Positions 1-45,986 of a stretch of DNA of 64,000 nucleotides are shown one piece after another. Source of the stretch: a virus. The translations under genes were made by a program, and so were the position numbers. The stretch's first letter is position 1. Every line of letters begins with the position of its first letter. The stretch covers positions 34,590-98,589 of the IMG/VR virus record IMGVR_UViG_3300003322_000423. One strand, written 5' to 3'. The notes under the pieces were generated by a model that was given only the letters and a program-made list of their open reading frames with translations, was not told where the DNA came from and ran no database searches.

Positions 1-647
1 TCTCGGTTGTACCAGTCTGCATAGAGTCCCACGGCATCAAACGCGCGGACAAAAGACATAAAGTTGGGATCAGCTTTTGTATTTGAGGGTGGCTCTGTGC
101 CAACGTACTTACGCCATCCTGTATCTGAGTACACCATTAGCCGGACTTCTCCACCCTTCCTAAGAAGTTCGTGTGCCCGTTCCATTATGTCTCGTGCCCA
201 TTCTATATGGTGAAGAACCCCATTACAGTAAAACACATCGAAAGACCTTTTTCGTGCGTTTAAAAACGGAGCCTCTCCAGATACTAAATAAGTTTGAACA
301 GGGTTTTTCCCATAGAGACCTAGGACTCTTGTACCTAGTTTAAGATTGTCTGTGCTCAAGTCTGCCAAGGATACTCTATTACCTGCAAGGGCTAATTCTA
401 GAGAATCTACAGACATGCCGCAACCGAAGTCTAATATATCCTTGTCTGTTAAACTGTCCAGCCCCATGACTTCACGCCACAAGTTATTGTGGTTTCTCCA
501 ACCTGTATAGCGAGTCTCTCTCATGTTATCAACCATGATTTTAAAGTCTCGCTCTTCCATGTTCACCAACATAGAAGATCTGAAGTAGCCTACATCATCT
601 ACAGGCGGTGATGACCACTCATGAACATGTCTCTCCCAAGAACTCAT
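1..647 (-). CDS. class I SAM-dependent methyltransferase (runs off the window edge)
   Basis: Hand translation from ATG at 647 gives MSSWERHVHEWSSPP...ILDFGCG (motif I)...FDVFYCNGVLHH; ATGA overlap with the upstream gene. Confidence 0.85.
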   Translation of the reverse strand, partial: MSSWERHVHEWSSPPVDDVGYFRSSMLVNMEERDFKIMVDNMRETRYTGWRNHNNLWREVMGLDSLTDKDILDFGCGMSVDSLELALAGNRVSLADLSTDNLKLGTRVLGLYGKNPVQTYLVSGEAPFLNARKRSFDVFYCNGVLHHIEWARDIMERAHELLRKGGEVRLMVYSDTGWRKYVGTEPPSNTKADPNFMSFVRAFDAVGLYADWYNR

Positions 648-1285
648 AGATTTAGACCTCGTATCGTTTCCGTGTCTTTGTTTATCAAATTCTGAATCAT
701 GGGGCTGTAGTACGACTGAGTGGTGTAATTAGATTGCCCCTCGTTCCAGATAGAATCGTTGTTCTGCCCGGATAGATCATATCTTCTATGGTCTATGTAC
801 GCTGGGACAGACTGTATTGTGCCTGAGGCCCTCCCTATATCTTGCCAATACGTATCGCAGTGATTAGTGTATAAAGAAAAACCACCCACAGCATTTACAG
901 CTTTTCGGCGTACAGCCGGGAAACAGCATAAACCGGGAGAGTGTTGAGATTGCATATCTGCAACCATGACCGATGAATCAAGACCCTCTATAAGACGGTC
1001 CCAACCCACTGTGGTCATAATGGCGTCATCATTCCAAAGGAATAACCAGTCTCCGGTGGATCTTTCAGCTAATGCATTGTAATATAGATGTAAATTTCTG
1101 TACCCATATCGTTCTGGAGCGATCCAACAGGTGTTTGGATCTACTAGTCCTTCATATGTGTCTACGTCATCAGGGTCTAAACCTACACACACTTCAAATT
1201 GAGAGAGGGCTGTATTTCTTAAGGACGCTAAAGATTCTTGATATAAAGCGGGTCTACCACGAGTCGGAAGCAGAACTGAAATCAT
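644..1285 (-). CDS. GT-A fold glycosyltransferase (GT2-like)
   Basis: MISVLLPTRGR start, WLFLWNDD motif; ATGA coupling to the upstream gene. Confidence 0.8.
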   Translation of the reverse strand: MISVLLPTRGRPALYQESLASLRNTALSQFEVCVGLDPDDVDTYEGLVDPNTCWIAPERYGYRNLHLYYNALAERSTGDWLFLWNDDAIMTTVGWDRLIEGLDSSVMVADMQSQHSPGLCCFPAVRRKAVNAVGGFSLYTNHCDTYWQDIGRASGTIQSVPAYIDHRRYDLSGQNNDSIWNEGQSNYTTQSYYSPMIQNLINKDTETIRGLNL

Positions 1286-2298: not shown

Positions 2299-3319
2299 TG
2301 AAAAGTACCTTTTCCCACTCGCCTATGTGATCCTCTAGAATCTGAGTCCTGGCCCATGCCTTGGCATTCTGACCTATCTCATTTCTCATGGCCTCATCGT
2401 TGACAAGGGCATTAAGATACTTGGCCCATTCGTGGTCCCGCTTTACAAGGAATCCTGTCTCGCCGTGTTTAATAATACGAGCATAAGGGCCAGAGTCAGC
2501 GGCGACTGTAGGTATTCCGAGTGCAGAGTTTTCGAGGAATTTAAGATGAGACTTAGATTGATTGAAGAGGTGGTGCCGCAGGGGGATGACTCCGATGTCA
2601 TAATCAATCGCCTTCCAGTATTCTTCTACACTAGGAATCCAGCCAGCAGCGCTCACCTGGTCCACAGGAAGCCCTAATTGGACCTGGGCCTGAGCTAGGT
2701 GACCACCTATGAGACGGAACGGCATACCGCTACGCTTCAGGTATCGGGAGATATGTGGGCCGTCAGCAGCCCAGTCCATTCCATGTGTACCTGATCCACC
2801 CCAACCAATTGTGAGTTCATCCCTGTGCGGGCGCTCCCAGTCCAGCACCCACCTAGGGATGTAGTTTGGAACGACGTGAACGTTATCGTTCCACTTACCC
2901 AAAAGATCTGCCAGAGGCTCTGTAGAACATGTAACAGCGTCGGCTAGAGCAATGTTGCGCCGTAAATTGGACTGTACATTGTGACGGTGGCCCTCATCAT
3001 CTATACCATTGATGAACCAGCGGAAAGCATCCCCGTTTGTTACATCTATGTTCCATAGATCGTCGTCCAGCTCAAAAACCATACGAGGACGTTCCTTTTT
3101 TACTCCGATGTAAAACCAGAGATCCGATGGACCGTCCTTGCATACTCGCTGCCCTATTAAAGTTTTAGGGAGTTTACTTTCATCAGATGATAACTTGACA
3201 TCATGTCCGGTTACATAGCCTAGTTCGGAAGCCAGTGCGTCAAGAGGTTGCATTATACGTAGAGTGCCACACCCTGTCTTATCTGCTAACCAGCCGAATG
3301 CGTCGAGTTTTTCAGTCAT
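2291..3319 (-). CDS. GT-B glycosyltransferase (GT4/GT1-like)
   Basis: DIGVIPL...FNQSKSHLKFLE...GIPTVA...GETGFLV C-terminal GT-B motifs. Confidence 0.85.
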   Translation of the reverse strand: MTEKLDAFGWLADKTGCGTLRIMQPLDALASELGYVTGHDVKLSSDESKLPKTLIGQRVCKDGPSDLWFYIGVKKERPRMVFELDDDLWNIDVTNGDAFRWFINGIDDEGHRHNVQSNLRRNIALADAVTCSTEPLADLLGKWNDNVHVVPNYIPRWVLDWERPHRDELTIGWGGSGTHGMDWAADGPHISRYLKRSGMPFRLIGGHLAQAQVQLGLPVDQVSAAGWIPSVEEYWKAIDYDIGVIPLRHHLFNQSKSHLKFLENSALGIPTVAADSGPYARIIKHGETGFLVKRDHEWAKYLNALVNDEAMRNEIGQNAKAWARTQILEDHIGEWEKVLFSD

Positions 3320-3851
3320 TTAGAAGCCATTTCTGAAAGTGTTCATCTGAATATTCCTGACCAGGTTTCCAGTCTTTTAATCGGTCACGGTGGTATCGAA
3401 ACTTCTTAGACTCGACGTCATATACGTTGGGTAGAGTTTGTAAGAGATCGAAATTATAGGCGGAAATATCCCGGTCATGTCCTGCCCCTGCCCCAGACCT
3501 GATATTTTCCGGTATACCTCCCCATACCCCATAGCGCTCCTTGGAAGCGCATGCAAACTCAAGACATTGGAGACGGATCGGACAGTCAAAACAAACGTCA
3601 GCAGCGATAGCAGACGGCTTGGTATCTCCGGGACAGTGCCATAGATCTTTGGACAGCTCACCTGCTTTTACCTTCTTTGCGCATAGAGCTTCCGACCAAT
3701 CCACATCGACCGCAGAGCCTTTTATGAATCTCTCCATAAGTCTGGAGATTTCACGTTCAACTCTGCGGCGGTTTTCTTCTGGGCCTACGTATTCAACTAG
3801 GTCATCAAAGAATACGTCTTCCCCATACTCCAGCTCATCCCAATCTGACAT
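3312..3851 (-). CDS. whiB: WhiB-family Fe-S transcription factor
   Basis: W..ALC...CFDCPIRLQCLEFA...GVWGG; start placed at the TGATG overlap with the primase stop. Confidence 0.85.
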   Translation of the reverse strand: MSDWDELEYGEDVFFDDLVEYVGPEENRRRVEREISRLMERFIKGSAVDVDWSEALCAKKVKAGELSKDLWHCPGDTKPSAIAADVCFDCPIRLQCLEFACASKERYGVWGGIPENIRSGAGAGHDRDISAYNFDLLQTLPNVYDVESKKFRYHRDRLKDWKPGQEYSDEHFQKWLLND

Positions 3852-6241
3852 CAGATCCTCAGCATGTTCGTGATCTCGATATCCAGGAATGTCATACGTC
3901 CGCGTTCCATGTCCCAACGCCAGCGGTCCTTGTACTTGCCTTCACGCACATCGGTCCATATGGACTTGGACGACGGAGGACGACCGCTTGAATAATGATC
4001 GTCATACCAGTCGCGGAATGCCTTGTAGAGTACCGTTCCGTCTTTCTTGCCCCCCACAGATTCCTCTGTGCACTGGTTCATGAAGATAAGGAAAGGGTCG
4101 TTCTCTTCCAACATCATAATGGCATCGAGAGCCAGATCAATAGGCACATCGAGACCGTTTTCAAGATAGTCACGAGTACCCTCTAATATCCAGTTAAGGA
4201 TACCGGATGATTCTCTTTTGGTCAAGTAGTTGAATGGTGTCGAATGGTGGGGTGATGTAAATGAGTCCCATTGTTCTGAAGTAGGCTCCACAGACCATCT
4301 AACCGGTCGGAACCTTCTAACGATTGAACGATCTGTAGGCAAATCGGGCATGTGGTTGGTTCTAAAATGGAGAGTAAATTTTGGGGTGTATTCCCAGGGG
4401 TTGACATTCTTGGCCTCCGCCTTGATGGCACCACCACCAGTCACATCCTTTAGTAGGGCCGTGTCCATCTTCTGATTGTCATTCAGCTCGTCAACTAGGA
4501 CGATTCGTTTTCCTTCGAACGATGCGATGTCTGCCGGAATTCGGTTGCTGTTGCTCTTGCGTACGAACGAATCACGCTGACCGGTGGTAGAGTATTCCCC
4601 CAGTACATGAGCGCAACAATCCAGGAACACACCCTTACCGTTACCACCAGAACCAATATGAAGCGCGAAAATCTGGTCACGGACTTCTCCAATCATTGTA
4701 AGACCCATGAGCCGCTGTAGATACCTACGGTGCTCGGGATTGGGCTGAGTCATTTCCAGAAAACGTAGCCATTCCGGACATTGAGCTGTCGGGTCATAGG
4801 TCACGTTGGAAATGTTGGTACACATATAGGTGCGGTTGTGTGGGTGTAAAGCGCCTGTACGTATATCTACTACACCGTTTGCTACATTCAGAATATACGG
4901 GTCGATATCAAAATCGTCACCGGTTGTCCAGAGTGCCTCACGGCCCTTTAGAATCAAAGAGGTGGCAGTAATTTTTCCTGCAAATCGCTGCTTGGCTGAC
5001 CATTCGAGGAAGACTTGCCGATAAGTTTTCGGAGTTGATTTTGATTTGCTAAGCTCAGCAGGAGGGCAAGTGCCAGGGTTGTAAAACAAAGCTTCCGTGT
5101 TAGGGATTTTAGTGATGACATCTTCTACCAGACTTAGAATTCGGCCCTCTCGGGCTGGTACCCATTTCTTTTTGTCAAAGGTGTAAAACTTTTCCCGGTC
5201 GGGATCATAGCGAATGTCTGATCCTTTCCAGAACACGACCCGGTTGGCGTTACCGATGTCGTCCATCTGGAACGTCTCGATAATGTCTCTGTCATCTGAC
5301 AGGGCATCGTCTAGCGGATCGGGGTTTTCATCTGCTGCTCGTCGTCCGCTATCGATAGCCAGTATGGCTCGGTCACGGGGATGATGTCCGGCTGTTGCAG
5401 CGTCTTCCAGAAGTCTCTGGGCTTCGTCATCGTCCAAGACGCCATGGAAGCACAAAGAGAACAGAACACGTGCAGCCGTGTACAGATAAGTGTTCTGGTG
5501 CCCGTTGGGGGCTGTACGGATTTTTCCTGTCCAATAGTCGACAGTCTTTTGAATCTGTTCGCTAAGAGGTTCTGAAATGGCCTCGGGGTTGTAGTCCTGT
5601 CGCTCTACTTGACGAAGATTGCGGCTTCCCTCTGACCACTTGAACTGGGCCTGGTGATTGAAGATGGCGTCTCTGAGCCACTTAGGTGCAGGCTTGGCGT
5701 CTTGAGTATCTTCAAAATCATAACCAGGGGTTGGAGGGACAAGGTGGTATCCACCTTCACCTTTGATATCGATACCGGGCCATAGGCGCCCTGAAATAGC
5801 GTGAACATCAAAGTTAGGCAGTTCAAATATGAAGTGCTTGCCACCCGCAGGGGTGGTGTTGGTTTCCGTGTCCAGCGGGTCATCAGGGTACTGCTCTGAC
5901 AATTCTTGAAAAGACACATCCCCGCCATTACGGGGATCATAATCGAACACAAAAACCCCGCTGGTGCGGCCAGTGGCCACAGCGAGGTGCATATCTGGGG
6001 TTTCTCTAACCCACTGCTCTATGACACCTAAATCATCCGTAGCGGCGTAGAAGCCATGACAACGGGAGTACGGGTCATTCATGCATGCACAATTGGAGCG
6101 ATGTTCTGGAGAACTCTCTCCCCGGCAAGCGTCACAGTTGGGGAAGGGTATTTTGTTAGAGGAAATGCCGAAGACCTTACGCCCGCGAGCGATAAGGTCT
6201 CTAGCAGCCTCTACTAATGCTTCCTGGTAGTCACTACTCAC
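3851..6241 (-). CDS. bifunctional primase-polymerase fused to D5/SF3 helicase
   Basis: HGFYAAT, VFDYDPRNGG, TPAGGKHF, IDIKGEGGY; GSGGNGKG Walker A. Confidence 0.92.
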   Translation of the reverse strand: MSSDYQEALVEAARDLIARGRKVFGISSNKIPFPNCDACRGESSPEHRSNCACMNDPYSRCHGFYAATDDLGVIEQWVRETPDMHLAVATGRTSGVFVFDYDPRNGGDVSFQELSEQYPDDPLDTETNTTPAGGKHFIFELPNFDVHAISGRLWPGIDIKGEGGYHLVPPTPGYDFEDTQDAKPAPKWLRDAIFNHQAQFKWSEGSRNLRQVERQDYNPEAISEPLSEQIQKTVDYWTGKIRTAPNGHQNTYLYTAARVLFSLCFHGVLDDDEAQRLLEDAATAGHHPRDRAILAIDSGRRAADENPDPLDDALSDDRDIIETFQMDDIGNANRVVFWKGSDIRYDPDREKFYTFDKKKWVPAREGRILSLVEDVITKIPNTEALFYNPGTCPPAELSKSKSTPKTYRQVFLEWSAKQRFAGKITATSLILKGREALWTTGDDFDIDPYILNVANGVVDIRTGALHPHNRTYMCTNISNVTYDPTAQCPEWLRFLEMTQPNPEHRRYLQRLMGLTMIGEVRDQIFALHIGSGGNGKGVFLDCCAHVLGEYSTTGQRDSFVRKSNSNRIPADIASFEGKRIVLVDELNDNQKMDTALLKDVTGGGAIKAEAKNVNPWEYTPKFTLHFRTNHMPDLPTDRSIVRRFRPVRWSVEPTSEQWDSFTSPHHSTPFNYLTKRESSGILNWILEGTRDYLENGLDVPIDLALDAIMMLEENDPFLIFMNQCTEESVGGKKDGTVLYKAFRDWYDDHYSSGRPPSSKSIWTDVREGKYKDRWRWDMERGRMTFLDIEITNMLRI

Positions 6242-7337: not shown

Positions 7338-8708
7338 TTACAGGGAAACACCCTTGCCTGCCATATAGCTGACAGGGTTGAGGAAGTTACCTACATAGAA
7401 CTGGGTGGCGTTGAAACGGATCTCGAAGTGCAAATGAGGACCACTTGCGTTACCTGTTGATCCCACCTTTCCTACTTCCTGTCCGGCTGCAACACTCTGG
7501 CCTTCTGAAACAGAACGGCTCTGAAGGTGAGCGTACAGCGCATACTTTCCATCCGGAAGCTTTATGGTCACATAGTTTCCATAGGCAGATCCGGCACCAC
7601 CTGAACCTGTATCGACAACAGTTCCGGCCGCAATCGCACGTGCGCTTGTACCCGCATTTGCGATCATGTCCAGTCCACTGTGGCCACCACAGCTACGGCT
7701 GATGCAACCACTTCCCACGATGATGTTGTCACCTAGATAATATGTTCCCTTTGCAAGGGGTGATACATAACCCTGAGAATTTGAAGGTGGTGTAGGTGTT
7801 GTAGGTGTTGTAGGTGTTGTAGGTGTTGTAGGAGTGCTAGGTGTTGATGACACACCTGAAACCACTAACACCGTACCCACTGTGATCTTGTCCGGGTTAG
7901 ACCCGATGACTGACTTATTGGTGTTGTACAGTGCCTGCCATCCACCAGAAACCTTAAGGTTTGTGGCGATGCTTGACAGAGTGTCCCCCTTCTTAACTGT
8001 GTACTTGACAACAGCACGAGGAAGGGTGAGCTTCTGTCCAGGATAGATCAGGTCAGGATTAGATCCAATTACGCCCTTGTTAGCGTTGTAGAGCGCCTGC
8101 CACCCGCCGTTCACCTTGTTGGCAACAGCAATAGCTGAAAGAGTGTCTCCGCTCTTCACAGTGTACTTTGTACCGCCGCTAGGGGTTGTAGGAGGTGTAG
8201 GTGTTACAGGGGGCTTGGGTGTACTTGGGGGGTTGGGTACGGTTGGAGTTGATGGTGTAGAAGCGTATGGATTAGGTCCACCACGGAACATGGAATCTGA
8301 GCTACTACGGAGAGGGTACCCCACCATAGAGTTACATGCCCACGCGTCTGGTCCCTGCATAGCTAGCAAAGCTTCCCCGGCTAAAATCTGCTGCTGCTTT
8401 GTAGCTGAACCTAGGTTATCCCAGCTAGGATAAGCTGAGGTGTCAAAACCTTTGTCTCTTAAATACTGAAGTGCTTCATTCCATGAAGCACGCTGAAACT
8501 GGAGACCACCCTTTGAGCGTCCGTTGTCTCCATAGTTGATGCTCCAGTTGCCGTTACTTTCACACTGGGCAATTCGGTCCCATTGGTTTACGGTTGCTGC
8601 GTTTGCCATTCCCGAACTGAGGACGGGAACAACCATAGCAGCACTCAATACGACCATAGTCGCAATTGCAGTGTTTACGCCCTTCTTGTTCTTGTTTTCC
8701 AATGACAT
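7338..8708 (-). CDS. secreted Rpf-type transglycosylase + 2 LysM + M23 peptidase
   Basis: Signal peptide; WDRIAQCESNGNW, GGLQF; two YTVK.GDTLS.IA LysM domains; HSGLD, YAHL, GPHLHFE. Confidence 0.92.
   Translation of the reverse strand: MSLENKNKKGVNTAIATMVVLSAAMVVPVLSSGMANAATVNQWDRIAQCESNGNWSINYGDNGRSKGGLQFQRASWNEALQYLRDKGFDTSAYPSWDNLGSATKQQQILAGEALLAMQGPDAWACNSMVGYPLRSSSDSMFRGGPNPYASTPSTPTVPNPPSTPKPPVTPTPPTTPSGGTKYTVKSGDTLSAIAVANKVNGGWQALYNANKGVIGSNPDLIYPGQKLTLPRAVVKYTVKKGDTLSSIATNLKVSGGWQALYNTNKSVIGSNPDKITVGTVLVVSGVSSTPSTPTTPTTPTTPTTPTPPSNSQGYVSPLAKGTYYLGDNIIVGSGCISRSCGGHSGLDMIANAGTSARAIAAGTVVDTGSGGAGSAYGNYVTIKLPDGKYALYAHLQSRSVSEGQSVAAGQEVGKVGSTGNASGPHLHFEIRFNATQFYVGNFLNPVSYMAGKGVSL
7789..7835. 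repeat. 9-bp tandem repeats encoding a PTT linker
   Basis: (ggtgttgta)n. Confidence 0.7.
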
Positions 8709-19863: not shown

Positions 19864-19937
19864 TGGTGGCGCCGCCCCGAGTCGCACGGGGGTCAAAGGG
19901 TTATGAGCCCTTTATGGAACTCCTCCACTACAGCGCA
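19864..19937 (-). tRNA. initiator tRNA-fMet (CAT)
   Basis: 1:72 mismatch, three G-C pairs in the anticodon stem, encoded CCA. Confidence 0.85.
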
Positions 19938-19938
19938 G

Positions 19939-20012
19939 TAGTTCTGACGGGATTCGAACCCGTGATCTTCTCCTTATGAGGGAGCTGCCCTAAACCACTA
20001 GGCCACAGAACT
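19939..20012 (-). tRNA. tRNA-Met or Ile2 (CAT)
   Basis: Cloverleaf, loop CTCATAA. Confidence 0.85.
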
Positions 20013-20083
20013 ATAGAAAGGAACAATGTCAGGTACAGCCGTGTCTCCTGATGTGGCCTGGCCCAGCTACTCATTGTTCCTTG

Positions 20084-20158
20084 TTCCACCGACGGGATTT
20101 GAACCCGTGACCAACACATTATCAGTGTGTCACTCTTACCAGACTGAGTTACGGTGGA
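20084..20158 (-). tRNA. tRNA-Ile (GAT)
   Basis: Cloverleaf, loop CTGATAA. Confidence 0.9.
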
Positions 20159-20236
20159 GATGTGACGGTTTTCCTGAGGCCCTACTTAAAGGATGCTGCG
20201 CTCTTGCCCCTCAGAGGTCGAACCGTCAAACCTCGC

Positions 20237-20310
20237 GCGACCTAGACGGGGATCGAACCCGCGACTTCCACCTTGACAGGGTGGTGCTCTAACCACTGAA
20301 CTACTAGGCC
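20237..20310 (-). tRNA. tRNA-Asp (GTC)
   Basis: Cloverleaf, loop CTGTCAA. Confidence 0.92.
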
Positions 20311-20494
20311 AAAACCCTGCCCACAAGGAACAGGATGGGTTATAAATTATACACATATTTCGTAAGGTTCAAGAGACTTTCCCACCTGGTACAGAGGTGT
20401 TCTCCATTGCTACTTACGATCCTTTATTACCCGTCTCTTTTCAGGGAGCGATTCCGTGTACCCGGCAGACGGAGCGTGATGTGTTTACGCCGCG

Positions 20495-35827: not shown

Positions 35828-36361
35828 TTAAGATGTACATTCTCTCTTCTTAAGGTACTCCGCCCATCCTTCAGTATCACCCATCATCGAACGGCCTTTA
35901 TCGTACCTGTTATGACAACGCCCACACATCGGGGTATAGTCTTCCAGATCCTCATATTGGCCCGTCAGATTAGCCCACGCTTGGGCTCGTTCACCACAGA
36001 AACAACGGTATTCTTTAGCAGAGCCTTTAGTTTCATACAGGTGTCTGTGAAGAGTGTAGTATGAAGGAATAACAGGGGTTTTACGAATGGAAGTATTCTT
36101 TTTATTTGAATTGTTTTCCCCTAGTTGGGCACATGTTTTAGAACAAAATCGCCCTACGTACTTGTTATCTCTACGCGCAAGAAAGTCTTTGGTGCAGAGT
36201 TCGCATTTACGTAGCTCTAGAGGGTGTTTATGTTGAGGATCGGTAGCGTCATCGTATATAAACTGAGCCCTTGACTTACGCCTACACCCAGATAGGTGAG
36301 GGCCTCTACGACGTGGTTCTATTATCTCTACATTACATTCAGGGCATGTCCATGTATTCAC
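35828..36361 (-). CDS. HNH-like endonuclease
   Basis: Y..LH......GSA...C.CG...WAN...DY.PMC..CH..YD; preceded by TTGACA-18-TAGAGT-6 nt-GTG. Confidence 0.75.
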   Translation of the reverse strand: MNTWTCPECNVEIIEPRRRGPHLSGCRRKSRAQFIYDDATDPQHKHPLELRKCELCTKDFLARRDNKYVGRFCSKTCAQLGENNSNKKNTSIRKTPVIPSYYTLHRHLYETKGSAKEYRCFCGERAQAWANLTGQYEDLEDYTPMCGRCHNRYDKGRSMMGDTEGWAEYLKKRECTS

Positions 36362-36406: not shown

Positions 36407-36631
36407 TCACTGGCCTCCCTTCTGGATGTATCCCGCCACGAACTCCTCGGCGTTCTCCTCAAGTACATCGTCGATATCCGACATGAGGTCGTCGAGTTCG
36501 TCATCTATCTTGGCCAAAGTCTCTTCAACAGAAGCATCTAGTTCTTCGTTGCTAAGATCTTTGGCCTGTACTTCTTCAACTTCTTCGGTGGTCTTACTGG
36601 ATTGTTTACTTACCTTCTCTTGGTTACTCAT
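36407..36631 (-). CDS. pup: prokaryotic ubiquitin-like protein Pup
   Basis: Acidic 74 aa; DDLMSDIDDVLEENAEEFVAGYIQKGGQ C-terminus. Confidence 0.92.
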   Translation of the reverse strand: MSNQEKVSKQSSKTTEEVEEVQAKDLSNEELDASVEETLAKIDDELDDLMSDIDDVLEENAEEFVAGYIQKGGQ

Positions 36632-37001
36632 GTCCTAACTCCTTTAAGCGACTCAATACATTATCTATCTGGCCCTGTCGACGCTTTCCCATATGTGGGC
36701 GTACCAGCTTACACAAGGCCAATACGTCCTGTACTGCGGCGACTTGCCAGTGATAAGCGTCCTTACAATTTGGACGCTTATATTTGTAGACTGATACACT
36801 ACCGATACCCGTGGTGATATGTAAACGAGAAATCACGTCTTCGTCCGTCATGTTACATACCACCTTGGGCCTTAACTGGCCGCCGTGACTGGCCACATAG
36901 AAAGAGCCCTCACCTTCCAGTAGACCAACGACCCACATAAGGTCTATATCCTCTAAAGGTTTTAGCTCACACGGCTTAGGAGGTCTACCTTTATGGCTCA
37001 T
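36624..37001 (-). CDS. LAGLIDADG-type endonuclease
   Basis: WVVGLLEGEGSF, NMTD.DVI. Confidence 0.8.
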   Translation of the reverse strand: MSHKGRPPKPCELKPLEDIDLMWVVGLLEGEGSFYVASHGGQLRPKVVCNMTDEDVISRLHITTGIGSVSVYKYKRPNCKDAYHWQVAAVQDVLALCKLVRPHMGKRRQGQIDNVLSRLKELGHE

Positions 37002-37423
37002 TGGGTCATCCTTAGGTATCTGCGATAGCTGCAACAGTGGGACAAAGCACTGAACGCGTCTTTACGTCCGGGGTCTGTCTTCAGTTCATCTATTGTACCG
37101 CCCATAAGTTGAGCCGCTTCCCGCTGACCTGATAGCCGGTGTTGCTCAACCCGTATGACAGGGTCGGCAGTTCCCCACCCCCACCCGGTCTTAGCAGCGT
37201 ACTTGAGGAATCCGACGATCTCAATAGTAGCCTTAGCCTCTTTGGTGAGATGTGAGCCACTCCGGTAGTCCTCTATAAGGACTACGTCGTCTCTGCCGCC
37301 CTCATCCTCCAGAACATTCCACGCCTCTATAGGGTTGGCAAACTGAGTTGCATAGAAGTCTATGCCGTCTAGCCATGCAACGCCTGTAGCCACTGCTCCC
37401 GGATCAAAACTCCATATGGTCAT
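36998..37423 (-). CDS. RuvC-like Holliday junction resolvase
   Basis: SFDPG..TG.A, VLIED, DA.SA..H. Confidence 0.7.
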   Translation of the reverse strand: MTIWSFDPGAVATGVAWLDGIDFYATQFANPIEAWNVLEDEGGRDDVVLIEDYRSGSHLTKEAKATIEIVGFLKYAAKTGWGWGTADPVIRVEQHRLSGQREAAQLMGGTIDELKTDPGRKDAFSALSHCCSYRRYLRMTQ

Positions 37424-38028: not shown

Positions 38029-38472
38029 TCAGCCTACCTGATTTACCCACTTGACACGGCTCTGAACACCGTACTCAGTAGATTCCTCGTTCTCTACTGT
38101 GATGATGACCTCTTGCTCAAGGAAGTTGTCCGTAAGATCTGCGGCCAGATCCTTTACATCCTCAACGCTCTCAATGACAAGCTCGTCCACCTCGTACCCG
38201 AGACCCTTGAGCTTAAGCTTGGCCATCTTTACGGCCTTTTCGGTGAATACGATGTTGTCGAACAGGTTGCCGAATTCCTGTCCGCCGTCAACGTCTTCGG
38301 CCTTTTCGTCGGTCACCTTGTATGTGACCTTGATCATCGGGTTACCGGCCTGAGAGGTCTTGAACTCGAACTTGCGAGCCTCCGCAAGAACCTTGGAACC
38401 GTCCACGAGAGCCTTGCGGCCACCTCCGGACTTGACCTCAACAGAACCGAAGTCTAAGCGTGCGATACCCAT
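38029..38472 (-). CDS. DUF669-like ssDNA-binding protein
   Basis: KTSQAGNPMI.V...LFDN. Confidence 0.7.
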   Translation of the reverse strand: MGIARLDFGSVEVKSGGGRKALVDGSKVLAEARKFEFKTSQAGNPMIKVTYKVTDEKAEDVDGGQEFGNLFDNIVFTEKAVKMAKLKLKGLGYEVDELVIESVEDVKDLAADLTDNFLEQEVIITVENEESTEYGVQSRVKWVNQVG

Positions 38473-38475
38473 TTG

Positions 38476-38778
38476 TCATACTCCCTGAGTTAAGGTGTGT
38501 CCGTTTATTGTTACGCTATTGGGCATGAGAAAGATATTGTCTGCCCCTAGTGAAGACATGGACCAGTCTGCCCGCTTTTCATATTCGTCTGCAAGTGCTC
38601 TAAGGGCACGAGCCACAGCCAGATTGTAGCCGATTGTGTTGTCTGGCTTATCCTTGGGGTGCTTCTTTGCAGAACCCGTTCCCGTCACTTCACCTATGTT
38701 GGTATACGTGGAACCTCTGGCCTCGGCAACCGAAGCTTCACCGTCAAGAAGAACGGTAAGTGAGATTGTCTTGTTCAC
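38476..38778 (-). CDS. DUF1876/dsRBD-fold-like protein
   Basis: GTGSAKKHP.D.....IG..LAVARAL..LA. Confidence 0.7.
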   Translation of the reverse strand: MNKTISLTVLLDGEASVAEARGSTYTNIGEVTGTGSAKKHPKDKPDNTIGYNLAVARALRALADEYEKRADWSMSSLGADNIFLMPNSVTINGHTLTQGV

Positions 38779-39519
38779 CTATTTCCCCGTGTATTTCAAG
38801 ATATCATCCATGGTGGGGTTTGTAAACTCCAGAGGCATTTGGTCCCCTGAGCGAGGCTGGCGCCACTTAGGTCCCTCAACCTTGCGCTGTGGCTTGAAGG
38901 TTAGAACCCTGTCCACTTTACGCCGATCATAGTCATAATAACCAACCCTGCCAATATTACGAAGGATCTCATCGCGACCCTTAGGAGTACCGGCAAGATA
39001 CTTGATAGTCGATTCTTCATCCTGCTGGTCCATGCTGTGACCGATAAAGATAACGTTGATTCCGTGCTTTGTCAACGTGAGCAAATCCATCATAAGCTTG
39101 ATCATGATGCGGTTTGCCTCACCCCACTGCGCCTGAGTGGGTTGCTTTTCACGTGAGCCAGTCAGCTTGGTCAGAATCAGGTCATAGTACACGGCGGAGA
39201 TACTGTCGACAATGATAGTATTGAAAGGACCGTTGCCCTTTGCCCCTACCAGCTTGTCTATAATGACACGAAAATCATTGAACGTGACTTCCCCGTCTTC
39301 CGGGGTGGGCCATACGGGGATATCGACGTCTGTGACAGACTCGTATCCATTAGGGTCCAGCTCGAAAAGTATAGCGTCTCGACCCTGTTCAGAGTCCTGT
39401 GCTGACGCAGCAAGCGTAGTTTTACCGACGCCAGGTGGGCCGAAAATAAGAAGTCCAAGTCCTGTGGATCCGGCAAGGTCACTCGCTTTCCGGAATGTGG
39501 GTAAACCTCCTACAGCCAT
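38779..39519 (-). CDS. AAA/RecA-like ATPase (Sak4-like)
   Basis: GPPGVGKTTLA, IIVDS, VIFIGH. Confidence 0.85.
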   Translation of the reverse strand: MAVGGLPTFRKASDLAGSTGLGLLIFGPPGVGKTTLAASAQDSEQGRDAILFELDPNGYESVTDVDIPVWPTPEDGEVTFNDFRVIIDKLVGAKGNGPFNTIIVDSISAVYYDLILTKLTGSREKQPTQAQWGEANRIMIKLMMDLLTLTKHGINVIFIGHSMDQQDEESTIKYLAGTPKGRDEILRNIGRVGYYDYDRRKVDRVLTFKPQRKVEGPKWRQPRSGDQMPLEFTNPTMDDILKYTGK

Positions 39520-39963
39520 CAGGAACTCCCACCCTCCATCATCATCTTCCACATGATGTTGGTCAGAAGGGCCAGAGCCTCAGCCTGAGTGAATCCCGCC
39601 CCTGTCAAGCCCCTGTACACCTCGTTGAGCATTACCCAGGACTCTTGCTGTTCTGTGTTGCCCATGTCAGCAGCCAGAGCGCTTAACAGCTCATCTTCTT
39701 TTTGCTTGTCGTCGGAGTTTTCGCCGTCATTAGAGGGTAATTCACTCAACTTCTACACCATCCTTATATGTGGCTACTACTGACCTGACATGCTTTACTA
39801 CTTGAACGTTACGGTATGTGGTAACCAGTTGGTGTTCTCGTGCAGCATCCTGGGCCTCTGCAAAAGTGTCAAACACAGACTCCACAGGCACCCAGGGATT
39901 GCCAGTATACATTCCATACGTGGGATCGTAGTATTCGATGCCATAGGTCGTGTTATCCGACAT
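39519..39963 (-). other. two hypothetical ORFs (39519-39749, 39742-39963)
   Basis: Packed ORFs. Confidence 0.55.
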
Positions 39964-41095
39964 TACTTAGATACTCCCGTAGTTCTTCGACAGAGGTAAT
40001 CTGTGCTGGTTCGACACCCCGTACCTCTTCTACGGTGCCGTACGTTCCTGTTGTGTATCTCTTTTCTAGCAGATATTCTACATCTCCGCCAGAGTGTTTA
40101 GTATGACATAGGTCACTAAACCAGCAATCACTACAGCCTTTGTAAGGAATGGTCCTGTAAACGCGCGGATTGTCCAGCATCTCTACCACAACGTTCTGGA
40201 AACCCTCTTTCCAGGACTCTAGCTGTTCTCGGGTGAAGAAGGCTTTTTCACGGTAGAAGAAACGCGTATCGCCCTGTTTATCGATGTCGCGCAAGTGCGA
40301 CAGGATTGCTTCAAAACGCGCGTCTTCAGGGTCTTCACCGTTGTTGGCGATAGCCTGGCAATATCGCTCCAGAGTTGTAGATTGGCGTTTATCCGTGGAC
40401 AGCAATCCATTCTTCAACACCTTCGGTTCTTGGATCGGCTTCTTGGCTATACCGTTGTACAGCACGCCGGTTACTGGCATCCCTGTAAGCCATTCTACGG
40501 CCACGGCGTATCCCTGTGACTGGAAGTGCCACTGCACGTCTTCCGGGCTGGGTTTGGACGTGTAAGTCTTGTTCTCGACTATCCAGAGATTTTCGTGTTC
40601 GTCAACAGCTATGTTGTCCAGGGTGCCACAGAAATACACTTTTTGCCCGGGTCTGGCGATGTTCCAGCCTATGTACTCAGTGATATCTATCTTGAACGGT
40701 ATTTCACAGCCTATGGACGTAAGTCCAGCATCCCCCAGAGGATTAGATAGGCCGTAGTGATCAAAATACTGGACAACAAGATCATGAGCAAGATCGAAAG
40801 CTTCTTCAATTTCCTTTGTCTCCTGAGGCCATGGCTTCATACCGTAGTGTTCAGTATAGAGTGCAACCTTTTCGTCGTAAACCTCTTTGCCGTACGCGTT
40901 AACGGCATAGACTGGGTTGTACCCATTAAAATTGGCCTCAAGAGCTTTATGAATTGCCGTGCCAACATCGAGATAGAGTTTAGGACTGGTCTTATGACGT
41001 ATGCTCTGACGATTTGCTGACTTGAAATCCCAGAGCTGGCGACACCTAAGAAATGACTCTATATCCGAGAACGAAATGTAAACGTCATCAGTCAC
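39953..41095 (-). CDS. PD-(D/E)XK (Cas4/RecB-like) exonuclease
   Basis: S.S.I..F..C, GTAIH, GTLD..VENKT, Q...Y, C..C.F...C. Confidence 0.85.
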   Translation of the reverse strand: MTDDVYISFSDIESFLRCRQLWDFKSANRQSIRHKTSPKLYLDVGTAIHKALEANFNGYNPVYAVNAYGKEVYDEKVALYTEHYGMKPWPQETKEIEEAFDLAHDLVVQYFDHYGLSNPLGDAGLTSIGCEIPFKIDITEYIGWNIARPGQKVYFCGTLDNIAVDEHENLWIVENKTYTSKPSPEDVQWHFQSQGYAVAVEWLTGMPVTGVLYNGIAKKPIQEPKVLKNGLLSTDKRQSTTLERYCQAIANNGEDPEDARFEAILSHLRDIDKQGDTRFFYREKAFFTREQLESWKEGFQNVVVEMLDNPRVYRTIPYKGCSDCWFSDLCHTKHSGGDVEYLLEKRYTTGTYGTVEEVRGVEPAQITSVEELREYLSNVG

Positions 41096-41164: not shown

Positions 41165-41626
41165 TCAAGATATAAACCAACTAGATCGCTTAACAGTTCC
41201 AGCTCCACTGGAGTAAACGTCGGTCCGTCGCACACATTCGCCTCCCGGCCATACGACCCTAGCTAGGGTGGTGTTTTTGATGAGTTTCATACAACCTTGG
41301 CACGGCTCGTCTGTTATGTAAAGGGTGCCACCCTCTAGGCGTTGTCTATCCGCGAACAACAGGGCATTGGCCTCTGCGTGGACACTATGGCATGCGCCTG
41401 GGCCGGTGTCATAACTGGAGCCCGGGGATACATCAGAGTTGGCCCTAGGGCACTCTCCGGCCAGACAAGACGGCCCCCCTGGGTAGCTGCCATTGTAGCC
41501 CGTAGATGCAATTCGGTGTTCCGTATCAAATATTACGGCCCCTACCTTACGCCGCGAACAATCCGCACGTAGAGATACCGCAGAGGCTATATGGAGTCCG
41601 TAATCATCCCACGATAGTCGCTTCAT
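41165..41626 (-). CDS. dCMP deaminase
   Basis: C.RR.VGA, TGYNG, HAEANA, PCQGC. Confidence 0.9.
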   Translation of the reverse strand: MKRLSWDDYGLHIASAVSLRADCSRRKVGAVIFDTEHRIASTGYNGSYPGGPSCLAGECPRANSDVSPGSSYDTGPGACHSVHAEANALLFADRQRLEGGTLYITDEPCQGCMKLIKNTTLARVVWPGGECVRRTDVYSSGAGTVKRSSWFIS

Positions 41627-42300: not shown

Positions 42301-42504
42301 CTATTTCTTGGATTCTTCTGTGTGCCAAAAAGAGTGTGACCAGTAGTCAGCTACATCACTGTCTGTCCGTATATAAAGCTTACCTGGTTCGTCGGCTTTT
42401 GACACCACTCCAGCAGAGATAGGTATTGTGATATCCGTCCCACAGCGGGGGCACGCGATGATAAGTGCCCCCACAGTGTGCATCTCACCGTCTACGTCTG
42501 ACAC
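42301..42504 (-). CDS. small Zn-ribbon protein
   Basis: CPRC; coupled ORF. Confidence 0.5.
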   Translation of the reverse strand: MSDVDGEMHTVGALIIACPRCGTDITIPISAGVVSKADEPGKLYIRTDSDVADYWSHSFWHTEESKK

Positions 42505-43919
42505 TAGTCCTCCCGGAGCCAGGATATAAGCGCTCTCTTCAACCCGTCAGTTCTCTGGTTGAGATGTTTTTGAATCGCCATGTCTGGTGTCCCCTTCGCA
42601 AAAACATTGTGGACATTTACCAGTCGTGTTTGCCCGCGCCTCTTCAGGCGCGCTATGCACTGTTCCTGATCTGCCGGTAGTGGACTGTGCTCTAAGAAGA
42701 CAACATCCGAGGCATGAATAAGTGAAATCCCTTCCTTCAATGAGGATATGGTGGCCACTAAGACGCCGTTCGCAGTGCTCTTCCATTGGTCCACTAACTC
42801 TGATCTTTTGTGGGTCGGGACGTCCCCCGTGACGAGCGTGACCGGACGGTCATTTCTAGAAAGGGCCTCTGCCACCGCTCTGGCAGAGTCTTTGTACCAG
42901 ACATACACCACGATCGGCCCGAACCGATCGTCAAGGAAATCACGGACAAAATCAATTTTCGGTTTTTCCTTAGTGGGAGGGTTAGTCGCCAACTGCCGTA
43001 ACCGCGAGTAGAGCGCCCCACCTCCATTGACAAACTCCGAATGCTCAAGATCCGGGTGCTCGATGATGTATTCTTTACGCGCTTGTACAAAGGTTTTCCT
43101 CACAGAAGCTGGTAGGTCGACAAAATAATCACGGTCGCGTTGGTCAAGAGTAGCAAGACTAGGGACATCTTGAAGGGTCCGGCGTAACGAGAATTGACCC
43201 AATATTTGTTGAAAATCGTCTTCAAGTCCACGTCGTAACTGCCCTACTTCCGTACTCCAAGGGGTCTTGACGACGTAGCAGTATTCCTCTACAAATCGCC
43301 AATAGCTCTTGTATGCTTTTTTGTCCCACAATTGCAGCATAGGGAAAAGATCACCCGGCGTATTAACAATAGGTGTACCCGTGAGATACCAAATAGGTGT
43401 CTGAAGGTTAGTCGCCCGTGCTTTCCGCAGTTCCATTACATGCTTAGTGCTCTGACTGCTACGTCCGCGTAAACGATGTGCCTCGTCGAATATGCAGACG
43501 GCCCAGGGTCGCTCCGAGAGTATCCCGTATTGACGCTGACCCGCTAACGGGTGGGGTTGTCCTTTGAGCGTTTTCGGCCACGTCGCTGACCAGTTGTTGT
43601 AACTAGTGATGACAAAGTCTGTCCACGGATTATCAAGGGCTTCGAACCGGGCTTCGAAGCCTTGTCCGTCGGCTGTGACAACCCTAGCGCTTGGCGCAAA
43701 TCGAGAAATCTCATAACACCAGTTCTTCACAAGATACGCAGGGCATGTTACCAGTGCAGGTCTTTTCGTCTCCTGAACTTTCTGATACGCCGCCACAATA
43801 GTAGGAGGAGTTTTACCAACCTAAACGCCGGGCACATCAAAGAGCCCGGCAACCCCCTTAGAGTTCAATAAAAAGTCCTTGGAAGTTTCTTGATAGTCAG
43901 ACAAGGTGTATTGAGTCAC
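42504..43919 (-). CDS. SNF2-like SF2 helicase with an in-frame TAG inside Walker A
   Basis: GTG 43919 gives TLSDYQ...LFDVPGV*VGKT; then DEAH, LTGTP, EGISL, Q...R..R.GQ. Confidence 0.88.
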
Positions 43920-44939: not shown

Positions 44940-45986
44940 TCAAGGCTGTTCATCCCATTTCCACAGGGCTGATTCCGGGGGAATATCAGCCTCCGTCTTG
45001 TTAGGGTATGCCGACATATAATTGCAGATCTTGCAGTACCGACGATTGGATTTATAGCCCCGGATTTCATGGTCCCGCTTGCAGTGAGTCTTTACCTCTC
45101 GGGGCTTGCGGGGCTTTCTACGAGCGGCCTGACGCTTACGTGTGGCTTCCTGGCAGATCATGCAACGCTTACTGGAAGTCCCGTTGACATTGGTGAATAC
45201 TTTTGTGTTTTCAGGGGTCCGCTTGTGACCGTTTACACACTGTTCCTGGTATTCCTCAGGAAAGAGATGTACTTTAACCGCGTGATGTGCGGCCCGGATC
45301 TTTCGCATACCTGAGGATGAACCACCTGCCAGACCGAGCATAGCCGCTATTTCCTTGGCGTTGAGACCTAGGACGTAGTGCCAATACAGTACCTGTCGCT
45401 CCTCAGAAGGCAGATCTTCCAGAAGCCCTTTGAAGGACATGTCAGCTATCAAGTCTGACTCGAACGACGTGGTCACAGACCCGTAGATGTCGTTTTCGTT
45501 CTCCAAAGTGATAGGTCCTATCGTGTAGGCATTGTGGTCAATTCGATCACGGCCGTTGTATATGGCATGATTGACACCCTTACCCTCTCGCATCTTTTTC
45601 CGTTGAATGGAGACAACGGAAGATGAGATTCCAGTGGACTGCACGATATACTTATTGGTCGGTTCCTCCCCATGGACCGATTCGTATTCAGCTATGCACT
45701 GCTTGATCTTTTCTCGGGTCTTGTCCCCTTGAGCATCTCTACGGCCGTCCCGGGACATAGGAGGCGCTCCTGTAGAGCGTCGGCGTCCCTGCCCGGACTC
45801 GGAGATGAATGCCACGGCCCACAGTTTTGCCCTGTGCGCTACATGCCGAAAGTCGTCGTTTCCGTCCTCAATATCACGCCATGCCCGGATCATGCCCTCT
45901 TGGAAGGCATCGTCATATTCACTGTGACCCCTGTAACTAGCGAGAGATGTGATCAGATACCGTCGAATCTTTTCGATGTCCACCAT
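44940..45986 (-). CDS. sigma-70-family RNA polymerase sigma factor with C-terminal Cys/His motifs
   Basis: DD.FQEG.I.AW (region 2); LP.EER.VL..HY..GL..KEIA..LG (region 4); CVNGH, CKRDH, CxxC. Confidence 0.75.
   Translation of the reverse strand: MVDIEKIRRYLITSLASYRGHSEYDDAFQEGMIRAWRDIEDGNDDFRHVAHRAKLWAVAFISESGQGRRRSTGAPPMSRDGRRDAQGDKTREKIKQCIAEYESVHGEEPTNKYIVQSTGISSSVVSIQRKKMREGKGVNHAIYNGRDRIDHNAYTIGPITLENENDIYGSVTTSFESDLIADMSFKGLLEDLPSEERQVLYWHYVLGLNAKEIAAMLGLAGGSSSGMRKIRAAHHAVKVHLFPEEYQEQCVNGHKRTPENTKVFTNVNGTSSKRCMICQEATRKRQAARRKPRKPREVKTHCKRDHEIRGYKSNRRYCKICNYMSAYPNKTEADIPPESALWKWDEQP

Follow-up and report, generated by a model that had tools for sequence, protein, structure and literature searches.

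The pup gene and its neighbourhood

The DNA analysed here, hereafter the window, is a stretch of 64,000 nucleotides that corresponds to bases 34590-98589 of a 98,589-bp IMG/VR virus record (IMGVR_UViG_3300003322_000423), rated about 85% complete by CheckV. On its minus strand lies pup, a small gene for a 74-aa member of the family of Pup, a ubiquitin-like protein of prokaryotes (Table 1). In bacteria, Pup is the tag by which proteins are consigned to degradation. The gene shares its strand with its neighbours, is tightly packed among them and has its own ribosome-binding site, with GGAG placed 7 nt upstream of the ATG. The initial annotation had described a 74-aa acidic Pup with its own ribosome-binding site and a Gly-Gly-Gln (GGQ) end, and the ORF, the AAAGGAG element and the stop codon were all found as described.

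Homing-endonuclease-like genes lie on both sides of pup, and neither has a Pfam match above the cut-off. The upstream gene runs 8 nt into the start of pup; in addition to its PHROG match, this gene shows a weak LAGLIDADG_1 match (E 0.016, below the cut-off), and it is unsure whether it belongs to the LAGLIDADG or the HNH class. The next gene upstream encodes a protein that is probably a RuvC-like resolvase; it matched no Pfam or PHROG family, and its similarity to the nearest Atlas clusters is a lead only. The surrounding module is one of replication and recombination, comprising an SNF2-type helicase, a PD-(D/E)XK nuclease, a Sak4-like ATPase, SSB, ThyX and PolA. Thus, the placement of pup between two homing endonuclease genes in the replication module, as originally proposed, is borne out by the phrog_5046 and phrog_1271 matches and by the identity of the module genes.

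Downstream of pup, in an operon-like run with it, is a gene for an SprT-like zinc metalloprotease, which also lies downstream of pup in a related phage fragment (L041, described below). The eukaryotic SprT-like relatives SPRTN and Wss1 are guided by ubiquitin or SUMO. That the phage protease might likewise be guided by Pup is pure speculation from the neighbourhood alone.

Table 1. Features of the window and of the adjoining part of the record (window coordinates unless stated otherwise)
Feature	Position	Strand	Basis
UDP-glucose dehydrogenase-like gene, just ahead of the window start	L125:13198-14487 (G000:C1:33198-34487)	-	phrog_9148, E 1.2e-69
WhiB-domain protein	3312..3917	-	PF02467, 48.6 bits at G000:C1:38087-38257; phrog_472 WhiB
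Rpf-type transglycosylase, two LysM and M23 peptidase domains in one protein	7338..8708	-	PF06737, PF01476, PF01551
tRNA cluster, 25 genes	19864-26663	-	
SprT-like zinc metalloprotease, 209 aa	34886..35515	-	PF10263, 30.5 bits (cut-off 25.6)
HNH homing-endonuclease-like, 177 aa, downstream of pup	35828..36361	-	phrog_1271, E 5.8e-6; phrog_4160
pup (74-aa phage Pup)	36407..36631	-	ORF; Pfam and NCBIfam profile matches
Pup residues 1-46	36494-36631	-	
Ribosome-binding site of pup, AAAGGAG	36639..36645	-	read directly from the sequence
Homing-endonuclease-like, 136 aa, upstream of pup	36624..37034	-	phrog_5046 'HNH endonuclease', E 5.8e-21
141-aa protein, probably RuvC-like resolvase	36998..37423	-	nearest Atlas clusters (0.94) include 'putative RuvC-like resolvase'; lead only
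SSB-like	38029..38472	-	phrog_378 and phrog_124 for the recombination genes 38029..39552
100-aa ORF	between the SSB-like and Sak4-like genes, within 38029..39552	-	
Sak4-like ssDNA-annealing ATPase	38779..39552	-	phrog_378 and phrog_124, as for the SSB-like gene
PD-(D/E)XK nuclease	39953..41095	-	Pfam
dCMP deaminase	41165..41626	-	Pfam
SNF2-type helicase	42504..43796	-	Pfam
Sigma-70-family factor (regions 2 and 4)	44940-45986	-	

The phage and its likely host

The record represents a real, uncultured phage of about 100 kb. The large terminase, the portal and the major head protein are encoded ahead of the window start, and the window itself carries genes for an endolysin, a beta-helix tail-fibre-like protein, a PrimPol/D5 helicase, PolA and ThyX, together with 25 tRNA genes. 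The PolA shows about 26% identity at most to anything in the phage collection, so that the phage lineage is new.

The combination of a WhiB-domain protein with Rpf-type domains is indicative of an actinobacterial host. Among the control genomes, PF02467 (WhiB) was found in Corynebacterium only, and the organism-named cellular homologues of the Rpf/LysM/M23 protein all belong to Streptomyces, with the exception of one 'Actinobacteria bacterium OV450'. We infer that the hosts are probably Streptomyces-like soil bacteria. Phage DNA was present in the root-metagenome runs of one study. The contigs of three such runs were short, low-depth pieces, none of which spanned the joints at the endonuclease genes, and the conserved 39-nt pup core also drew GC-rich pup genes of other organisms from them.

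Several further features of the phage were observed. Relatives of the Rpf/LysM/M23 protein with 55-65% identity occur in metagenomes, on contigs that reach 100 kb and probably represent a family of related large phages. The phage also encodes a sigma-70-family factor, and this factor together with the WhiB-domain protein suggests that the phage probably reprograms host transcription. The UDP-glucose dehydrogenase-like gene just ahead of the window is unusual as phage cargo. Within the tRNA cluster, an Rfam scan of 20300-20800 gave a tRNA only and no tmRNA match at E 0.01 or below.

The product of pup is a member of the Pup family

The window protein matched the Pfam Pup family (PF05639) with 67.5 bits (E 2e-18, cut-off 27) over profile positions 9-69 of 69, and the NCBIfam profile TIGR03687 (pupylate_cterm) with 55.9 bits against a cut-off of 41.45, so that the profile search suggested at the outset as a check gave two matches above the cut-off. 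The PHROG families contained no match for it. Pups are expected to be small (about 60-80 aa), acidic and intrinsically disordered, and the window protein is small and acidic (23 Asp and Glu, 6 Lys, no Arg); its C-terminus reads ...AEEFVAGYIQKGGQ / ...NAEEFVAGYIQKGGQ, with the stop codon immediately after; its last residues, YIQKGGQ, thus form the Gly-Gly-Gln/Glu end of the Pup family. Cellular Pups (Rv2111c of Mycobacterium tuberculosis and that of Streptomyces) belong to the same family and are likewise acidic, with 64-72 aa compared to 74 aa in the window Pup, and the Streptomyces protein shows 45% overall identity to the latter.

Residues 34-74 align without gaps with residues 24-64 of M. 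tuberculosis Pup (PDB chains 3m91_B, 7px9_G and 3m9d_G), and 21 of the last 28 residues are identical in this alignment. The aligned part is what structures show in complex with Mpa (3m91, 3m9d) and with the enzymes of pupylation (7oxy, 7oy3, 4bjr). When it lies in the groove of PafA or Dop, this C-terminal part of cellular Pups is folded into two short helices, and on the Mpa coiled coil it is a single long one (PMC8223512). The window Pup retains the conserved stretch DDL.(2)IDDVLEENAE.FV.(2)Y.QKGGQ, and its C-terminal half is accordingly predicted to be helix-forming.

Judged by its sequence, the window gene thus encodes a genuine Pup-family member, one that keeps every sequence feature for handling by the Dop, PafA and Mpa of the host. 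Ligation of a Pup with a terminal Gln requires prior deamidation by Dop (PMC8223512); as the window copy ends in Gln, it would be inert until Dop acts.

The phage pup stands apart from cellular Pup-proteasome loci

Profile searches of the whole 98,589-bp record (about 85% of the genome) gave no match to Pup_ligase (PF03136, PafA/Dop) or to the proteasome family (PF00227). With respect to Mpa/ARC, the sole AAA match in the record was an 18-residue P-loop below the cut-off, which lies in the Sak4-like ATPase. As a control, the arc-dop-pup-prcB-prcA...pafA locus of Streptomyces polygonati (L032) was used, all five of its proteins being confirmed by Pfam, and these served as tblastn queries against the window and all the pup loci compared. 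The Streptomyces Mpa, Dop, PrcB, PrcA and PafA queries found nothing in the window. Thus, the claim that the window lacks dop, pafA, arc/mpa and prcAB is upheld by both kinds of search, and it extends to the entire record.

Cellular pup genes adjoin dop and prcBA, whereas the phage pup stands alone. Pup-proteasome genes were found next to pup at all 11 loci from species genomes and at 74 of the 80 metagenome loci, 1-2 kb contigs included, while none of the 27 viral loci from IMG/VR contained them. The six metagenome exceptions are two relatives of the phage (L041 and L043), three contigs of 1.0-1.7 kb (L045, L049 and L056) and a copy (L097) of the viral contig behind one of the IMG/VR loci (L011). 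The window Pup therefore belongs to the protein family, whereas its locus is not of the cellular Pup-proteasome type. All Actinobacteria are said to possess a Pup-proteasome locus (PMC8223512); together with the WhiB and Rpf-type domains, which point to an actinobacterial host, and with the Streptomyces homologues, this leads us to expect the missing enzymes in the host. Given a genuine stand-alone phage Pup with its enzyme-facing features kept, some interaction with host pupylation is a reasonable reading.

pup is a long-resident gene of the phage lineage

Synteny with the window, at 40-80% amino-acid identity, was seen in two phage fragments from metagenomes, L041 and L043. The gene order in L041 is SSB-like, RuvC-like, Pup, a small ORF and SprT-like, and the genes overlap; in particular, the RuvC-like orthologue (549..977) overlaps pup (974..1204) by 4 nt (ATGA). 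Both genes flanking pup in the window match endonuclease families and vary in presence between relatives, both being absent from L041, which indicates that they are mobile insertions. In L043, pup (1419-1646) directly follows the SNF2 helicase gene, overlapping its end by 41 nt, and is not beside the RuvC-like gene. This position differs from that in the window, so that pup has moved within the replication module.

Between the window pup and its L041 and L043 orthologues, pN was 0.20-0.24 and pS about 0.95 (saturated), and a dN/dS of 0.10 was obtained for L041 versus L043. The G + C content of the window pup (47%) is close to that of the phage (50%), in contrast to 53-66% in five cellular pup genes. 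In a database search, the window Pup retrieved about 20 close relatives with 59-82% identity, all of them metagenomic, while the nearest named cellular Pups, from Micromonospora and Actinomadura, were about 50% identical and the closest cellular Pups found overall about 45-53%. Three of the close relatives, P0006, P0018 and P0021, lie on contigs of 37, 68 and 34 kb, respectively. Among the matches listed, the clade motif was not found in species genomes, and within IMG/VR the clade-specific DNA motif occurred only in the window's own record. Taken together, pup is a long-resident phage gene under purifying selection. Both forms of the Pup end are represented among the 21 members of the phage clade, GGQ in 12 and GGE in 9.

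Stand-alone pup genes recur in other phages

The 27 IMG/VR loci (L002-L028) consist of small stand-alone ORFs, every one of which has GG[QE] directly before its stop codon, even though the last residue was left free in the patterns searched. All six that were scanned (L002, L011, L012, L018, L019 and L026) pass the Pfam Pup model. Three of the Pup-bearing IMG/VR records carry direct terminal repeats, and another two were classed as complete. These genes resemble the window pup in their small size, their GG[QE] end and their separation from Pup-proteasome genes. However, their products share only 38-47% full-length identity with the window Pup, and most of the loci have no other gene in common with the window, so that they represent separate phage lineages and probably separate captures. 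In a Pup tree of 63 columns the resolution was poor; the viral Pups fall in several places, too weakly for a firm count of origins.

Clustering of the neighbours of pup in the Pup-bearing phage loci revealed no conserved partner gene. The recurrent neighbours encode dCMP deaminase, ThyX and a 3'-5' exonuclease, indicating that phage pup genes tend to sit in a DNA-metabolism, presumably early, region.

A cultured example was found in INPHARED by tblastn with the L012 Pup as the query: gp36 of Streptomyces phage Dagobah (MT711977.1, QMP84414.1), which is annotated as 'ubiquitin-like protein Pup'. The Dagobah Pup, used as a query in turn, returned itself only, and the window Pup returned nothing even at E 10, probably owing to the low-complexity filter. 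Like the window Pup, gp36 is a stand-alone Pup of an actinobacterial phage, encoded among DNA-metabolism genes (primase/polymerase and dCMP deaminase); it passes the Pfam Pup model with 47.8 bits, and its full-length identity to the window Pup, NEEL motif included, is 45%. The Dagobah phage differs in being cultured, in its 47-kb genome and in being otherwise unlike the window phage, and gp36 ends in QVGGE. Because of its long branch, its position in the tree is unsure. In the Dagobah genome (L122, MT711977.1:18616-26723), pup lies between the endolysin and primase/polymerase genes, with an SsgA-family sporulation regulator and the dCMP deaminase a few genes off.

The Dagobah genome paper (PMC7650747) makes no mention of Pup, ubiquitin or the proteasome, and Pup is known there as a database annotation only; our literature searches found no published study of a phage Pup. 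One further candidate was set aside: MT835496.1 (L123, 42133-45216), deposited as 'UNVERIFIED: Bacteriophage sp.' from human faeces, carries Dop, Pup and PafA genes side by side and looks bacterial, specifically actinobacterial.

The N-terminal half is conserved within the phage clade

Residues 1-46 of the window Pup (EEVEEVQAKDLSNEELDA...) are nearly invariant across about 20 relatives. This part contains the motif TEEVEEVQ, which is common to the window Pup and Streptomyces Pup. A middle segment of the protein, AKDLSNEELDA, is specific to the clade and absent from cellular Pups. At matched C-terminal identity, conservation of the N-terminal part was 0.51-0.66 in the phage clade versus 0.24-0.39 in other Pups; since the Pups compared had been selected for their resemblance to the query, the difference should be taken as a hint and not as a measured value. 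At the nucleotide level, pN in the N-terminal half of pup lay within 0.23-0.33 in the comparisons with the orthologues, with values of 0.23-0.27 against a pS of at least 0.93.

The initial annotation had taken the N-terminus, the part threaded by Mpa, to be divergent, and had proposed on these grounds that the protein could be a non-degradable decoy. This argument is not supported, in view of the TEEVEEVQ motif in common with Streptomyces Pup, the purifying selection and the high conservation within the clade. As cellular Pup N-termini vary anyway, the difference from M. tuberculosis Pup says little.

Possible roles of the phage Pup

A phage without enzymes for Pup must rely on those of its host. 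The reading that we favour, with a probability of roughly 0.5, is that the phage supplies a conjugation-competent tag to host Dop, PafA and ARC-20S. Pup would be made together with the phage DNA replication and recombination genes; its C-terminal Gln would be converted to Glu by host Dop, it would be ligated by host PafA to lysines of target proteins, and the tag would be read by host ARC/Mpa with the 20S proteasome, all three steps being suggested by the conservation of the corresponding sequence features. Pup is the sole stoichiometric component of the pathway and the enzymes are catalytic, so that bringing the tag could suffice if host expression is shut down. Pupylation flux might thereby be kept up or raised, leading to faster removal of host proteins, and the phage would meanwhile run its own recombination set (the Sak4-like ATPase, SSB, nuclease and RuvC-like protein).

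Two known activities of the cellular pathway are relevant in this respect: RecA and 26 proteins of the PafBC regulon are pupylated and removed, and in nitrogen-starved cells amino acids are recycled through the Pup-proteasome system (PMC8223512). Both the removal of RecA and DNA-repair proteins and the recycling of amino acids would suit a phage with its own recombination genes.

Several observations make us favour the supply of a tag, namely that the phages carry the tag only, that its enzyme-facing features are kept, that GGE ends are common and that the gene lies in an early DNA-metabolism context. The strict GG[QE] end followed by a stop codon (21 of 21 clade members and 27 of 27 viral loci) argues that phage Pups are conjugated and not merely bound, and the nine GGE copies of the clade would be ready to ligate without deamidation. 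A benefit from tag supply presupposes that Pup is limiting or consumed in vivo; Dop can recycle Pup. In addition, a plain model of more of the same tag does not explain the unusual conservation of the N-terminal half. As far as the sequence goes, the phage may boost, jam or redirect pupylation.

Instead of feeding the pathway, an excess of free phage Pup might jam it, by binding to ARC/Mpa at the coiled coils, to PafA and Dop in their Pup grooves, or to both kinds of site, so that pupylation-dependent degradation in the host, for example that of phage proteins, would be blocked. Free Pup-GGQ binds Mpa without being degraded (PMC3769308), the window copy is of the GGQ form, and its Mpa-binding stretch is conserved; moreover, the 'lysine desert' hypothesis places actinophage proteins under pressure from the Pup-proteasome system (PMC13696103). 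However, a pure Mpa blocker would not need a ligatable end, yet GG[QE] followed by a stop codon is universal and 9 of the 21 clade members already carry GGE, while the GGQ form would itself become a ligation substrate through host Dop. Lysine is not depleted in the 32 window proteins examined (K 4.8%, R 5.5%, K/(K+R) 0.47), which argues weakly against strong pupylation pressure. On this evidence, jamming of host pupylation appears unlikely.

A different way to account for the N-terminal half is that the phage Pup is ligated by PafA, but that this half has a reader besides or in place of ARC/Mpa, encoded by the phage or the host, with relocalisation, disassembly or selective targeting as the proposed outcomes. 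The conservation contrast between the phage clade and other Pups, the purifying selection on the N-terminal half and the clade's own AKDLSNEELDA segment are in line with such redirection. On the other hand, no conserved partner gene adjoins pup across the Pup-bearing phages, the contrast was drawn from a set picked by similarity and may in part reflect a faster-evolving C-terminal part in the phage proteins, and the phage clade is young relative to all Actinobacteria. We therefore regard redirection as quite improbable. That the gene is functionless, as a recent host-gene capture, a passenger of the endonucleases or an assembly chimera, might be imagined from its position between two mobile endonuclease genes and from the ease with which small pup genes are picked up, but is very hard to reconcile with its retention in relatives without the endonucleases (L041) or at another site (L043), a protein conserved while synonymous sites are saturated, a G + C content matching the phage and not the host, tight same-strand packing with its own ribosome-binding site, and closest cellular Pups of only about 45-53% identity.

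Beyond the supply of a tag as such, actinobacterial phages may have captured Pup repeatedly to control host tagging, and in the present lineage the phage-specific N-terminal half may steer PafA and the ARC-proteasome against the RecA/DNA-repair regulon or against defence factors; this is a speculative extension that we hold with considerable doubt.

Comparison with known systems and implications

Compared to cellular pup genes, the phage gene is set apart by its lower G + C content, its clade-specific segment and the unusual conservation of its N-terminal half within the clade. A similar logic is found in the baculovirus v-ubi, with which a eukaryotic virus carries only the small modifier and relies on the conjugating enzymes of its host; however, v-ubi and Pup are unrelated in fold and chemistry, and the hosts of v-ubi are eukaryotes. 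Ubiquitin-like tagging in the conflict between phages and bacteria is also represented by the Bil system, reportedly (Hor et al. 2024) a bacterial ubiquitin-like conjugation system directed against phages. In that case the host owns both the tag and the enzymes and tags the phage, whereas here the tag is owned by the phage, and the protein families differ.

To our knowledge, Actinobacteria have no ubiquitin-like system for tagging proteins for degradation other than pupylation. Work on it has dealt with stress and virulence, and it is not known to have been studied as a viral target. A tag brought in by a virus would bear on the proposal, so far a proposal only, that actinophage proteins are poor in lysines so as not to be pupylated (PMC13696103); in its form for mycobacteriophage proteins, this is the nearest idea in print. 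Phage Pups may also provide variant tags for pupylation-based proximity labelling. With Dagobah, which grows on the genetically tractable Streptomyces coelicolor, a cultured phage with such a gene is at hand, and this makes the question testable. A virus with nothing but the tag would demonstrate an involvement of the Pup-proteasome system in phage infection, in parallel to the ubiquitin genes of eukaryotic viruses; if host tagging is indeed hijacked, this would be the first case of a virus subverting bacterial pupylation and a prokaryotic counterpart of virus-encoded ubiquitin.
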